From NCBI RefSeq assembly GCF_055900595.2, contig NZ_CM148325.1: a stretch of 64,000 nucleotides of DNA; one strand, 5' to 3'. Positions within the stretch are counted from its first letter, which is position 1; every line of letters begins with the position of its first letter. Shown here in pieces: positions 24,001 through 30,000 of the stretch. A program made the position numbers.

Positions 24001-27000
24001 TTACCTTCAGGTTGTCGCAATGGCATCGGACATCCGGTGTCGGATAACTAAACGTAGCGTTAAGGCGATATTGCTGAGAGACCGGTTAAGTGGTTGCACG
24101 GGAGTAATGAGTTTGGGGAGGGTACCAGAATGTCAGTCTGGTGCGGTATGCTGGCAGTATCACGTTGATTACAGCATAAAGTAACGAGAGACGAATGGAA
24201 GTTAAAACCAGAGCAGTTCCGTCGTTGTTCATCCCGGGAGACGCTGGAAAAAGTGATTTCCCACACACGTTATAAACTTACCCCTGCGGAGCTGGAAGCC
24301 TTTAACTCTGCGGTCGATCACCGGCTGGCAGAACTGACAATGAACAAACTTTACGATCGCGTGCCGGCTTCCGTCTGGAAATATGTCACCTGAATCTTGA
24401 ATCCGCGCTACGATGACTCCGGTGTTATCTGTGCACCGGAAGATCGGGAACATTAAGCAGTATAACGGCAACAAAGAATTCGAAATCAAAAGGGAATGGT
24501 GTACAGAGGGGCAGGCGTTCAGGCATTACCGGCCTGTATCTTCTGAAGGGGACTCGTATTTGTCGGGGCTGAGTATTCCGCTCGATTCGATCACGGATTG
24601 GCGGAATACCTGACTGTGATTGATTCAGGTACCATTTTGCAGGGAGCCGGTGCGTTACTGTCTGGCACAACAAACGCAGCGGGTCGCTCTGCCCCGCCGA
24701 TTCCTGATAATCCCTCCTCTGTAACCTACTGCAACAGTACAAATACACTGACGCCTGAAACGGTAACCAGAATCAGCACCAGCAGTAACGTCAGTAAACA
24801 GAGCAGACGATCGGTCTTCCGGTAATAACCGAAGGGGTCGACAGCGCCACAATACGGGCAACATACTGTATTATGAGTAATTGCGTTACCACAGTCCCTG
24901 CACTTCTTTTTGCATATCACGATCGCTCCCTCTCCACGCCTTATCCGTAACCTGTTTTTTACATTAAAAAAACAACGCCGGGAATTCAATCGTCAGTCCG
25001 GCGATGACCGTTCGGGTTATCACAGAGTGCCTGAGACAGTGTCCTGCCGGAGGTCACCTCAGGGGCTCTGCGCATTTTTTACGACGTGGTTATTCCGTAT
25101 GAACCATACGGAGATTTAACCATGACCTACAAATACAACCCCTTCTGGCAGCAACGTATTCGTGAGACGGTGCGGCACGCACTGAATGTTCATTCCCGCC
25201 TGACGGCATTGCGGGTTGACCTGCGTTTCCCGGATGTACCGGCAGCAACGGACGCAGCTGTGATATCCCGCTTCATCAATGCCCTGAAAGCCCGAATCGA
25301 CGCTTACCAGAAACGTAAGCATCGGGAAGGTAAACGCGTGCATCCCACAACCCTGCATTACGTCTGGGCCCGGGAGTTTGGGGAGTGCAAAGGTAAAAAA
25401 CACTATCACCTGATGCTGCTGGTCAACCGGGATACCTGGTGTCGTGCCGGCGATTACCGCGCTCCGGGATCACTGGCCGGGATGATTAAACAGGCGTGGT
25501 GCAGTGCCCTGGGAGTGGATGCCGGACGTTATGACACGCTGGCACATTTTCCGGTCAGGCCGGCGGTGTGGCTGGAACGCGATGATGACACCGGCTTTCA
25601 GCAGGTGCTGGAGCGTGCTGACTATCTGGCGAAGGAGAGTACCAAAGCTTACGGCACCGGTGAGCGCAACTTTGGCTGCAGTCGTGGCTGAGCCCGACAG
25701 ACGACTTATCTGACCTTAGTGTGATGACGTGTTCACAGCGACCACACTGATTTTCCCTTCTGAGACTGAACTGAAAACCGCCATTCACACCTGACCACGC
25801 TGCCCGTACCGGGACGGCTGTTGCCTGTGTGTCGTCTGGCGCAGAGGAACATATACTATGTACGCAAAATCTTTTCTCGCACTTGATGGCAACGGACGTC
25901 TGACCGGTGCCCGTACCGCACAAACTGCTCCTTATGCCCACTACACCTGCCACCTTTGCGGCAGTGCACTCAGATACCACCCGCAATACGACACCGAACG
26001 GCCCTGGTTTGAACACACTGACGACGGGCTGACGGAGCACGCGCAGCAATGTCCTTATGTCAGGCCGGAACGCAGAGAAATACGGTTGATTAAACGTCTG
26101 CAGCAATTCGTCCCGGATGCCTTACCCGTGGTACGTAAAGCCAGCTGGTACTGCAGGCAATGTCACCACGATTATTATGGGGAGCAGTACTGCACACACT
26201 GCCAGACCGGGCGTTTCAGTGAGGAGGGGGTAGCAGAATGAACGGTATAAAAACGGGGCTGGGGATCACGCCGGGTGAGCACATTATCAGTGCCGACTCT
26301 GCGCTCAGCAGAAATATCCGGCATTGTTTCTGCCTTTCCTGTCATGGCCGGTTGATTCTGCAGACAGATGCTCAGGGGGCGTGGTTTGAGCATGATTTAC
26401 ATGCCCTGAGTGAGCAACAGAAGGGTAAGCGTGCAGCAAAAACCGTATTGACGGGGATGTGTTATTCAGTCGGCAGTGCTACGCGCCAGGGGAGCAGTTC
26501 GCCGACCCGGTTTATCGGCCAGTCGGCTATGACGTCAAGGACATAGCGGAGGTAGCTTTCTGGCTCCACTCCGTTCAGTTTGCACGTCCCGATCAGGCTG
26601 TACAGCAGCGCTCCCCGCTCTCCTCCATGATCCGAACCGAAGAACAGGTAGTTTTTGCGGCCCAGACTGACCATCCGCAACGCATTTTCAGCGATGTTAT
26701 TGTCCGCCTCAGCCCAGCCATCATCTGCATAGTACGTCAGCGCCGGCCACTGGTTCAGGGCGTATGCGAACGCTTTCGCCAGTTCTGAGTGTCGCGACAG
26801 GGTTTTCATCTTTTCACGCAGCCAGCTTTCCAGGGATTTCAGCAGCGGTTTCGTTTTCAACTGACGTTCGGCAAGGCGCTGCTCCGCCGTCATTCCCCTT
26901 ATCTCTGCCTCGATGGCGTACAGTTCGCCGATCCGTTTCAGCGCTTCCTCCGTCAGGGCTGACGGGGTGCGAACGTGCACATCGTGGATTTTACGGCGGG

Positions 27001-30000
27001 CGTGAGCCCAACAGGCGGCTTCCGTTATCCGGCCATCCCGGTACAGCTCGTTGAACCCGGCGTATGCATCCGCCTGCAGTACACCACTGAACCCCGCAAG
27101 ATGGGTCTGCGGATGGATGCCTTTTCTGTCCGGGCTGTAAGCGAACCACACCGCCGGCGCCAGCGTTGACCCGGCGTTACGGTCGTCACGAACGCAGGTC
27201 CATAACCGCCCGGTCTTCGTTTTCTTATTGCCTGGCAACAGCACCGGGACAGGCGTGTCATCAGCATGGAGCTTACCGTCAGTCAGCACATAGCCATGAA
27301 GCGCCTCTTCCAGCGGAGACAGCTGCCGGCAGCATGCATCCACCCAGCCCGACAGCAGTGAACGGCTCAGCTCCACACCTTGCCGGCCGTATATTTCTGA
27401 CTGGCGATACAGCGGGGTGTGCTCTGCATACTTCGAGGTCAGCACGCGGGCCAGCAGCCCCGGTCCGGCGATACCCCGCTCGATGGGCCGCGAAGGTGCA
27501 GGTGCCTGCACGATGGCATCGCACTGAGTACAGGCATGTTTTTCCCGTACCGTCCGGATAACCCGGAAGGCGCTACGCATCAACTCCAGCTGTTCGGCGA
27601 TATCCTCGCCCAGATAGCTCAGTGAACCGCCGCAGTTCGGGCAGCACGGCGCCGCAGGCAACAGTCGCTTTTCGTCACGGGGTAGTGATTCAGGGAACGG
27701 CTTACGGGTGCGGGTCTGACGCAACGGACGCTGTACTGCCGGGTCATACACCCTACCAGTCAGCGTATCGCTCTCTTTCTGAAGCCGGTTCAGATCGGCT
27801 TCCATTTGTGCGATACGGCGGGAGACTTTTTCGGAACGACTGCCGAAGTTCATCCGGCGGAGTTTATCCAGCTGCGCCTGCAGATGGTCTATTTCGCGCT
27901 CCCGGTTGCTCAGCTTTTCCTGCAGGGCGTGGATCAGCGCTTCCTGTTCGGCCAGGCGCTGTTTCAGCAGGAAAATGTCGTCAGAAGAGATGTCGTTCAT
28001 ACATCGTGTATTTTTCGCCGGGCATGGACCCAGCACGCAACTTCTGTCTGTGCACCACCTTCACGTTTGGCACTGAACAGCCGATCGTAACCGCTGAATG
28101 CATCCGCCTGCAGGATACCCCGGAAGGGACGAAGGTGTTGTACCGGATGTTTTCCCTGCCTGTCTGGTGAGTAGGCGAACCAGACCGCCGGTGGCTCTGA
28201 TGAGCCCGCATTCCGGTCATCCCGGACATACGTCCAGATGCGTCCTGTTTTTGCCTTTTTTCTGCCCGGTGTCAGCACTTTTACCGGTGTGTCGTCAGTG
28301 TGAACCTTGCGGGTGTTCATCACGTAACGGTACAGGGCATCATTTAGCGGAGTCATTAACTGGCAGCACGCGTCAACCCAGTTGGAGATTAATGCACGGC
28401 TCAGTTCGGCACCCTGTCGGGCAAAGATTTCACTCTGACGATACAGTGGCAGGTGTTCGCAGTATTTTCCCGTTAACACGCGGGCAAGTAATCCGGAGCC
28501 CGCGATGCCGCGCGCTATCGGGCGGGACGGCGCTGGCGCTTCAACTATACAGTCACATTTTGTACAGGCTTTTTTTACCCGAACAGTGCGGATCACTTTC
28601 AGGGCGCTACTCACCAGTTCCAGCTGCTCAGCACTGACTTCACCCAGATAATCCAGCTCACTGCCACACTCCGGGCAACAACTTTCTTCAGGCTCCAGGC
28701 GGTGTATTTCACGGGGAAGATGTGCTGGTAACGGACGACGATGACGTGACTGTCGCAACTGGCGGGGAACCTGCGGGTCATCCTCACGCCCACTGTAACG
28801 ATCGCTTTCCTGTTCGCGTTGTTTCAGTTGGGCCTCAGCCTGTTCAACCTCACGCTGCAGTTTTTCAGAACGGGTACCGAACAGCATCCGGCGCAGTTTT
28901 TCTATCTGGGCCCTCAGATATTCTATTTCCCGCTCCTCCTCTTCGATCTTTTCTTCGGCACGTGCCAGTGCAGAGCGCAGGAAGGCCTCCGTCTCTTCAA
29001 CCAGACTCAGTTGCAGATCTCTCTGACGGAGGGCTTCAGCCTGCTCAGAGAGCAGCCTTTCCAGCTCAGTGATACGAATGAGGTATTTCCGACTCATGAC
29101 CGTTTTTATAATCCGGCCATGACATTTTTACAACATTGTCAGTGCGTTAAGACGGGATGTTTTTGGCTGACGCCAGTCCAGCTTATCGAGGAGCATTGCC
29201 AGCTGCGAGCGGGTAATGGATACCTTACCGTCACGCACCGCAGGCCAGATAAACAGGCCTTCCTCCAGGCGTTTGGTGAACAGGCACAGACCATCAGCAT
29301 CAGCCCAGAGGATTTTAATCATGTCACTCCGTCGGCCACGGAAGATGAACAGGTGACCGGAGAAGGGGTTCTCATCCAGCACATGTTGTACCTGTTCACC
29401 CAGACCGTTGAAGGATTTACGCATATCAGTAACGCCGGCAACCAGCGAGATTCGAGTGTCTGATGGGAGCGAGATCATCGCCCCCTCCCGGTCAGTTCAC
29501 GGATCAACACCGTGAGCAGCTCTGGTGAAGGATTTTCCAGCGTCATGTTACCGTGGCGGAACTCAACTTTACAGGAACTGGCACTGACTGTGCTTTGTGA
29601 AGGAGTGGATAAAAGCGGAGTAAGAGCCGCCATAGGCTCTTTCTGCTCATCAGGCGTTATCTCAACAGGTAATAATTCAACGCCAGCGTCAGAAGAGGTT
29701 GTTACCGGAAGACGCCGCGATATACGCCCTTCGTTCTGCCAGAGCCTGAGCCATTTGAACAGGAGGTTATCATTGATATCGTGTTCCCTGGCAATACGGG
29801 CAACAGAGGCTCCTAGTTGTGAAGCCAGTTTAACCATTTGAAGTTTAAACTCATTTGAAAATGTTCTGCGGGGTTCTGCGGATAATATTTTCTGTTCCAT
29901 AACAGGTGTCCACTAGTTGATGAAAAGGTGGGCACCTACGTTACCAATACTGGCTTAATGGCTACATACGGCGGTCAGTTTACGCTTACCATGTATCTGG

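Follow-up and report, generated by a model that had tools for sequence, protein, structure and literature searches.

Two different tnpC genes in one IS66-family unit: a probable chimeric relic in a pheV-type island of Escherichia coli

Do two different tnpC genes, lying in tandem between IS-like ends, belong to a single transposable element, or are they what is left of two? This question is raised by a locus in the window, i.e. the whole 64,000-nt stretch of contig NZ_CM148325.1 that was analysed here. The initial annotation had taken the locus as the probable product of recombination or deletion between two IS66 members and not of a simple insertion. Our results agree with this view: the halves map to two different canonical elements and meet at a 3-nt junction, no target duplication is present, and the continuations of the halves are missing. 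Of the two processes named, illegitimate deletion fits these observations and homologous recombination does not. The unit is very probably an immobile chimeric relic, which would have been formed when two elements inserted in the same orientation and one illegitimate deletion then joined them.

Gene content and organisation of the unit

The chimeric IS66-family unit occupies positions 26425-29989, with all genes on the minus strand in the order tnpA, tnpB, tnpC' (truncated behind codon 366) and a full-length tnpC of 512 codons. The left end is the one originally assigned, whereas the right end had been placed 11 bp short, at 29978. The IS682-type tnpA (29900..29475, minus strand; 141 aa) and tnpB (29478..29128, minus strand; 116 aa) are both full length; the former matches HTH_Tnp_1 and the NCBIfam IS66 TnpA profile, and the latter Pfam TnpB_IS66 (E 8e-35). 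The truncated tnpC' (29097..27997, minus strand) retains 366 of 537 codons; the last 171 codons are gone, and with them the C-terminal end of the DDE domain and the C-terminal element typical of IS66. It matches Pfam DDE_Tnp_IS66 at positions 1-163 of 284 only and NCBIfam transpos_IS66 at positions 4-236 of 387 only, and PGAP independently annotates it as a pseudogene missing its C-terminus. The intact tnpC (28000..26462, minus strand; 512 aa; RefSeq product WP_000997995.1) encodes a DDE transposase with all four IS66 TnpC domains of Pfam, LZ_Tnp_IS66, zf-IS66, DDE_Tnp_IS66 (1-283 of 284) and DDE_Tnp_IS66_C, and scores 464 bits against transpos_IS66. Domain E-values across the unit range from 1e-14 to 1e-139, so chance matches are of no concern.

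ORF coordinates and domain profiles thus confirm the tandem tnpC genes, the first ending after 366 aa. The two had been described as abutting, stop to start; they are indeed adjacent, but in the exact form of an overlap, in which the ATG of the full gene and the TGA of tnpC' share the tetranucleotide ATGA. Their divergence is clear as well, at 61% amino-acid and about 65% nucleotide identity. The gene content is already known, in that the RefSeq annotation lists one tnpC here and, as a pseudogene, another that is truncated at its C-terminus.

The canonical organisation of the family, as in IS66 and IS679, shares with the unit the three gene types in the same order, the tnpA/tnpB ATGA overlap and the GTAAGCG termini; the unit departs from it in that a second, truncated tnpC is present, the ends are not a cognate pair and the 8-bp duplication is missing. 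All four full-length IS66 members examined (three elsewhere and one in the window) carry one tnpA, one tnpB and one tnpC and are flanked by an 8-bp duplication. A natural two-tnpC organisation, which would have spoken against the initial annotation, is therefore absent from each of the four.

Two parental elements and the junction between them

Alignment of both tnpC genes and both termini to IS66-family relatives, the check proposed with the initial annotation, identified the parents as an IS682-type element and a 2442-bp element of the ISEc8/ISEc22 group, and placed the junction exactly. The right-hand part (27999..29989, minus strand), read from 29989 to 27999, corresponds to positions 1-1991 of an IS682-type element and is 97.2% identical to the 2533-bp IS682, the reference being a complete 2533-bp copy whose transposase, as in other records, is so named by NCBI PGAP and which is flanked by the duplication GAGAAAGA. 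It spans the left inverted repeat (outer end 29989), tnpA, tnpB and the first 366 codons of tnpC, with protein identities of 96.5% (TnpA), 95.7% (TnpB) and 96.7% (TnpC', against IS682 TnpC residues 1-366). The left inverted repeat and the lengths of tnpA and tnpB are shared with IS682, whereas the unit has no target duplication and lacks positions 1992-2533, i.e. the last 171 tnpC codons and the right inverted repeat; neither these 3' 542 bp nor the right repeat occurs anywhere in the 64,000-nt window. The right-hand part is thus an IS682-type fragment and not a full-length element of 2533 bp with both ends. IS682 is mentioned by one ST131 paper in GI-pheU, a locus other than the present one.

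The left-hand part (26425..28001, minus strand), read from 28001 to 26425, corresponds to positions 866-2442 of the 2442-bp element, whose assignment to the ISEc8/ISEc22 group rests on PGAP product names. It begins one base before tnpC (base -1), extends to the outer end of the right inverted repeat at 26425, and is 99.5% identical to the full copies in pSCU-387-1 and NZ_CP024292, each of 2442 bp with an 8-bp duplication; the TnpC proteins are 99.4-99.6% identical. Against copies that PGAP names ISEc22 the identity is about 94% (over the part up to window position 27967 only), and against those that it names ISEc8 91.6-91.9%. The unit shares with this group the 512-aa TnpC and the right inverted repeat. 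It has lost the group's left inverted repeat, its tnpA and tnpB, and the hairpin-bearing spacer of 49 bp between tnpB and tnpC, so that high identity is confined to positions 866-2442 and the left-hand part, too, falls short of a full-length element (2442 bp, both ends). The 99.5%-identical copies are unnamed and sit on IncF and IncI plasmids.

Base-by-base comparison with both parents places the junction at 27999..28001 (minus strand), where codon 366 of the IS682-type tnpC is joined to base -1 of the other tnpC. The junction is non-homologous, the parents sharing TAT (3 nt) alone, and it is this TAT that gives rise to the ATGA overlap. On the ISEc8/22 side no more than 1 nt separates the breakpoint from the tnpC start codon, which is a narrow target for a break made at random; there, TAT forms the 3' foot of a stable hairpin (-9.9 kcal/mol on folding, z = -3.8) just before that codon, and the hairpin might, weakly, explain the position of the break. 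Homologous recombination between the tnpC genes could appeal to the identity that they retain, and an assembly artefact might be suspected at any such join; yet codon 366 is joined to codon 1, out of register and over 3 shared bases, and the identical junction recurs in 658 independently finished genomes, which makes either explanation wholly implausible.

Termini, flanks and distribution

To the left of the unit lie two DUF7828/zinc-ribbon paralogues, which are 30% identical. The first (25858..26241, plus strand; 127 aa) is intact, with the Pfam domains DUF7828 and Zn_ribbon_11. The second is represented by a 5' part of 62 codons (26238..26424, plus strand), whose ORF runs into the IS end at 26425; it retains DUF7828 in part (positions 2-62 of 87) and has lost the C-terminal zinc ribbon. 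Intact homologues of this second gene (137 and 141 aa, DUF7828 plus Zn_ribbon_11) occur in two related islands and provide a left empty site, and homology to them ends exactly at 26424, in agreement with the earlier claim that the left end truncates the second of the two paralogues. The missing 3' part of the gene and the genes downstream of it were not found anywhere in the window. With the 3' part gone, the cut in the gene is compatible both with insertion alone and with insertion plus deletion.

On the other side, the IS682-type left end adjoins the N-terminal remnant of an IS4-family transposase pseudogene (30046..30443, minus strand; a PGAP pseudogene mapped from a relative; Pfam Nterm_IS4, E 2e-9). 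In strain 2018-166, which provides the right empty site, this pseudogene continues leftward uninterrupted, and its homology to the window starts from about 29990. Compared with the empty-site alleles both termini are therefore clean, and the DNA that continues beyond each IS end at the empty sites is absent from the window.

These flanks bear on the possibility of nesting, i.e. insertion of the ISEc8/22-type element into codon 366 of the IS682-type tnpC, with later deletions of 865 bp at the left of the inserted element and, beyond its other end, of the rest of IS682 and the flank as far as the zinc-ribbon gene. One IS inside another is a frequent sight in the island: IS21 or ISEc23 lies inside the chimera in some strains, an IS66 element lies inside IS30, and another copy of the ISEc8/22-type element is cut by an IS3-family element. 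Nesting nevertheless requires at least two extra deletions, one with an endpoint exactly at a former IS boundary and the other ending exactly at the right terminus of the ISEc8/22-type element, which looks like a clean simple insertion against the intact alleles; moreover, the left end of that element is absent from the junction. We consider this course of events improbable, if the least improbable of the alternatives.

A second fragment of the ISEc8/22-type element (48616..48449, minus strand; element positions 1-168) lies 18.4 kb from the unit. In an alternative that we regard as slightly less probable still, this fragment and the 28001..26425 piece (866-2442) would be one copy split by a complex rearrangement, which put about 20 kb of DNA, the IS682-type piece and the nan-like cluster among it, between the two. 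The two pieces have the same orientation, do not overlap in element positions, and are both 99.4-99.5% identical to the same plasmid reference. However, the octamers outside their termini differ (AGTTGTTC at 48616, ACAGAAGG at 26425), which argues against a single insertion, and for this reason the fragment was rejected as a simple explanation of the lost left end. Furthermore, the inner boundaries are an IS3-family end in one case and an internal IS682 position in the other, a combination that no single known event yields, and the sequence that lies to the right of 48616 has no relationship to the zinc-ribbon gene.

The absence of an 8-bp duplication around the unit, as originally noted, is evident from the sequences on either side, ACAGAAGG at the left end and CATGTATC at the right end, which are no direct repeat. 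Complete parental copies are flanked by the duplications ATCAGAAC, TGACATTT and GAGAAAGA, and the third IS66 element in the window by ACAAGTGT.

A junction-spanning query (coverage threshold at least 80%) detected the junction in 658 of 5426 complete E. coli genomes, and every junction locus inspected, in a sample of the matches, lies in the same chromosomal context; 689 genomes carry the right flank, each in a single copy. No genuine plasmid copy was found among 72,556 plasmids, where the one match, CP088753.1, is a 22-kb, error-ridden, low-quality record of chromosomal type. The sole match among 100,044 species representatives was in a Segatella copri MAG, on a contig that belongs to E. coli and had been binned wrongly.

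Could the unit be a functional hybrid IS, or a natural two-tnpC variant of the family, that transposes as a whole? Its tnpA, tnpB and one tnpC are intact, both ends (26425 on the plus strand, 29989 on the minus strand) begin with GTAAGCGT and have an internal CCGTAT block in common, and the ATGA overlap could permit translational coupling. An autonomous IS66 element has one each of tnpA, tnpB and tnpC (DDE), cognate terminal inverted repeats, an 8-bp target-site duplication and copies at more than one site; here there are two tnpC genes, the first of them incomplete, the GTAAGCG ends come from different elements and agree at 16 of 24 positions, whereas the two ends of either parent agree at 20, the duplication is missing, and the loci inspected represent one chromosomal site. 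In addition, each half is matched, at 97-99.5% identity, by a canonical element of its own, and a scan for promoters and terminators found such sites in the unit no more often than in shuffled sequence. Transposition as a unit is thus very unlikely.

Probable origin and significance

The two-insertion, one-deletion origin favoured here would have begun with two different IS66-family elements, both in minus orientation, in a UPEC pheV-type pathogenicity island. The 2442-bp ISEc8/ISEc22-group element would have inserted into the second DUF7828/zinc-ribbon gene, and the IS682-type element into the older IS4-family transposase pseudogene upstream of the nan-like sialic-acid cluster. One illegitimate deletion may then have removed the left end, tnpA and tnpB of the former, the rest of the zinc-ribbon gene with all the island DNA between both elements, and the right end and last 171 tnpC codons of the latter, the deletion ends being rejoined at TAT. 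The outcome is an IS682-type tnpA-tnpB-tnpC'(1-366) array that runs by ATGA into a full ISEc8/22-type tnpC. Because the unit carries one terminus of each parent, it has no target duplication, and it gives no sign of mobility. The single-deletion step rests on parsimony, because a genome with both complete elements and the intervening DNA was not found in the sample of matches, where the candidates were unrelated ISEc23 insertions or related islands.

Some activity of the relic may be imagined from its coding capacity, although we think it improbable. The IS682-type TnpA and TnpB and the ISEc8/22-type TnpC, with tnpC translation coupled via ATGA, might help other IS66-family copies or solo ends of the island in trans. 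Alternatively, TnpC' keeps the leucine-zipper and zinc-finger DNA-binding parts with an incomplete catalytic domain and could therefore be a dominant-negative inhibitor of IS682/ISEc23 transposition.

Comparable debris is found in O-island 122 of O157:H7, where truncated ISEc8-type and IS682/ISEc23-type pieces also adjoin in a virulence island; there, however, a tnpA-less ISEc8-type copy (tnpB and tnpC annotated) lies upstream of a 5'-truncated second element, and the debris is the result of an independent event. A 90%-identical, apparently collinear match in O157:H7 was rejected, since it falls in this debris, which differs from the unit in the order of its pieces and in its breakpoints; the collinearity came from the joining of separate pieces.

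Mobile-element debris of this kind is ordinary in a virulence island of E. coli, and the locus is of little importance beyond its correct annotation. It is a fixed scar in a pheV-type island common to major extraintestinal E. coli lineages (among them ABU 83972, Nissle 1917 and ST131 strains), so that the exact junction could be used to mark the lineage or the island. The locus offers a clean example of a probable microhomology deletion between two related, non-identical insertion sequences, and a lesson that two adjacent transposase genes between IS-like ends need not form a transposable unit.

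Structure of the tandem-tnpC unit

The IS66-family unit lies on the minus strand and encodes tnpA (29900..29475; 141 aa, matching HTH_Tnp_1 and NCBIfam IS66 TnpA), tnpB (29478..29128; 116 aa; TnpB_IS66, E 8e-35), a short tnpC (29097..27997) that stops after 366 codons, and a complete long tnpC (28000..26462) of 512 codons. With 61% identity between their proteins, the two tnpC genes are divergent and stand in tandem behind tnpA and tnpB, as the initial annotation had it. They follow each other immediately: the TGA of the short tnpC and the ATG of the long one overlap as ATGA, an arrangement through which their translation could in principle be coupled. 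All four IS66 TnpC domains were found in the long tnpC, while the short one keeps the leucine-zipper and zinc-finger regions and matches Pfam DDE_Tnp_IS66 at positions 1-163 of 284 only. A consensus promoter scan of the unit revealed sites no more numerous than in shuffled sequence.

Both ends of the unit carry the terminus GTAAGCGT. The left one begins at 26425, as first placed, and the right one finishes at 29989, so the earlier right boundary (29978) was 11 bp short. The flanking octamers, ACAGAAGG (26417-26424) and CATGTATC, form no duplication, as had been noted. The possibility that the unit transposed as a hybrid element therefore fares worse than that of two insertions followed by a deletion: besides the missing target duplication, its termini agree at 16 of 24 positions (20 of 24 in cognate pairs), and the same context at every locus inspected contradicts it.

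None of the full-length IS66 members examined has two tnpC genes. A third element of this family in the window (50603-53300, plus strand) is complete (2698 bp), with a single tnpA, tnpB and tnpC (225, 115 and 523 aa), the ends GTAACCG... and ...CGCTTAC, and an 8-bp duplication, ACAAGTGT. It interrupts an IS30 copy and is missing from strain ABU 83972, and is thus a comparatively recent insertion in the lineage of the window strain. A superficially chimera-like arrangement in O-island 122 of O157:H7 PV15-279, beside nleB/nleE, is IS66-family debris of independent origin. There, an ISEc8-type copy without tnpA, in which tnpB and tnpC are annotated, is followed directly by an IS682/ISEc23-type element that is truncated at its 5' end and has a frameshift in tnpC; both the order and the breakpoints are unlike those of the chimera.

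Parental elements and their junction

Comparison of the tnpC copies and termini with IS66 relatives identified an IS682-type and an ISEc8/22-type parent, each with exactly one tnpA, tnpB and tnpC. Window positions 29989..27999 share 97.2% identity with positions 1-1991 of an element of 2533 bp (L003), whose transposase is named IS682 by the NCBI annotation pipeline (PGAP) and which has GAGAAAGA as its 8-bp duplication. Positions 28001..26425 share 99.5% identity with positions 866-2442 of an element of 2442 bp carried by IncF and IncI plasmids (pSCU-387-1, L002; NZ_CP024292, L004), whose copies have the 8-bp duplications ATCAGAAC and TGACATTT. PGAP-labelled ISEc22 copies share about 94% identity with this part (measured up to window position 27967), and ISEc8 copies 91.6-91.9%.

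Homology to the IS682-type parent extends through ...CACGATGTAT and homology to the ISEc8/22-type parent starts at TATGAACGAC, the sole sequence common to both being TAT (28001..27999). The junction fuses codon 366 of the short tnpC to the base preceding the start codon of the long one. The suggested origin by recombination or deletion between two IS66 members is thus supported by the match of each half to a different element, though not in the form of homologous recombination between the tnpC genes, which the out-of-register junction rules out.

In intact copies of the ISEc8/22-type parent, a hairpin with a 9-bp stem (ATAAGCCCG-N8-CGGGCTTAT; L002 5083-5110; -9.9 kcal/mol, z = -3.8 versus shuffles) lies between tnpB and tnpC, directly upstream of and overlapping the tnpC start region, and ends precisely on the junction TAT. 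It is lost in the chimera. We infer that this hairpin may have determined the position of the break; it may also be a translational control element.

Outer boundaries and proposed history

The left end truncates the second of two zinc-ribbon genes, as the initial annotation held: in related islands of ETEC4077 and WCHEC020031 this DUF7828/Zn_ribbon_11 gene is intact (137 and 141 aa), and their homology to the window ends exactly at 26424. The 3' part of the gene and its downstream neighbours occur nowhere in the 64-kb window. Position 29989 adjoins what is left of an IS4-family transposase pseudogene, its N-terminal part (Pfam Nterm_IS4, E 2e-9). In strain 2018-166 this pseudogene runs unbroken across the insertion point, and the sequence that follows there is again missing from the window. 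Given these empty-site alleles on both sides and the absent continuations, each end of the unit has the appearance of a clean IS terminus in an ordinary target, with the DNA past the lost inner ends missing. Window 25086-26424, with the DNA upstream, is a conserved module containing an hha-like gene (a pseudogene here), a YagK/YfjJ 'inovirus Gp2 family' protein gene and two tandem DUF7828/zinc-ribbon paralogues, and is shared by several unrelated E. coli islands (L006, L007, L010).

Most likely, two co-oriented insertions followed by one illegitimate deletion produced the chimera. The two parents would have inserted in the same orientation, and a single deletion would then have started in the spacer between tnpB and tnpC of the ISEc8/22-type element, spanned the remaining zinc-ribbon gene and the island DNA between the elements, and ended at codon 366 of the IS682-type tnpC. 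Of the histories considered, this one involves the smallest number of events and accounts for all boundaries. A nested insertion with later deletions fares worse, as it would require two or more additional deletions whose endpoints happened to be exact. No genome among the hits inspected retains both parents complete at these sites, so the single-deletion step is inferred from parsimony.

A further ISEc8/22-type fragment (48616..48449, minus strand; positions 1-168, 99.4% identity) has the same orientation as the chimera. It comprises the left inverted repeat and the first 25 codons of tnpA, and is cut by an IS3-family element at ~46876-48448. On the outside it is flanked by AGTTGTTC rather than ACAGAAGG, and a single simple insertion therefore did not give rise to both this piece and the ISEc8/22-type part of the chimera; a more complex history shared by the two is possible. 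IS66-family ends are abundant throughout the island, and solo termini at 45881 and 59276 (both minus strand; GTAAGCGTACACTGGCC... and GTAAGCGTCGTCTCAGCACCGTCTGG...) have no recognisable IS66 genes attached.

Distribution and decay

The chimera resides in a pheV-type uropathogenic island with iha, sat and aerobactin genes, and the region is 100% identical in many complete E. coli chromosomes (e.g. ABU 83972, Nissle 1917 and ST131 strains). For a query of 241 bp across the junction, matches covering at least 80% of its length occur in 658 of 5426 complete E. coli genomes, with an identical context at every locus inspected; in 689 genomes the right flank is present as a single copy. The lone plasmid match (CP088753.1, 'plasmid pB16EC0942-9') was rejected as an artefact. 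This 22-kb circular record of low quality and chromosomal content (98.4% identity, many broken ORFs) carries the chimera and nan-like genes, differs to the left of the equivalent of 26425 (fimbrial genes and another IS66 end fragment), and is probably a piece of chromosome, low in quality or misassembled. The lone match among 100,044 species representatives (JAJXBQ010000270.1; 3880 bp, 99.97% identity to window 27919-31798) is a contig from E. coli wrongly placed in a Segatella copri MAG.

In some strains IS21 or ISEc23 has inserted into the unit. In TUM11356 a 116-bp deletion (equivalent to 29937-30052) has taken away the terminal repeat of the IS682-type part together with 63 bp of flank, which shows that the relic is still decaying. 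Although tnpA, tnpB and one tnpC are intact, the unit is best seen as inert debris; activity in trans, or an inhibitory role of the truncated TnpC, is conceivable but unsupported. The phenomenon is an ordinary one, already reflected in public annotation: the NCBI pipeline lists the tnpC pair as an IS66 family transposase and an IS66 family transposase pseudogene "missing C-terminus", and treats the zinc-ribbon gene next to them as a pseudogene truncated at its C-terminus.
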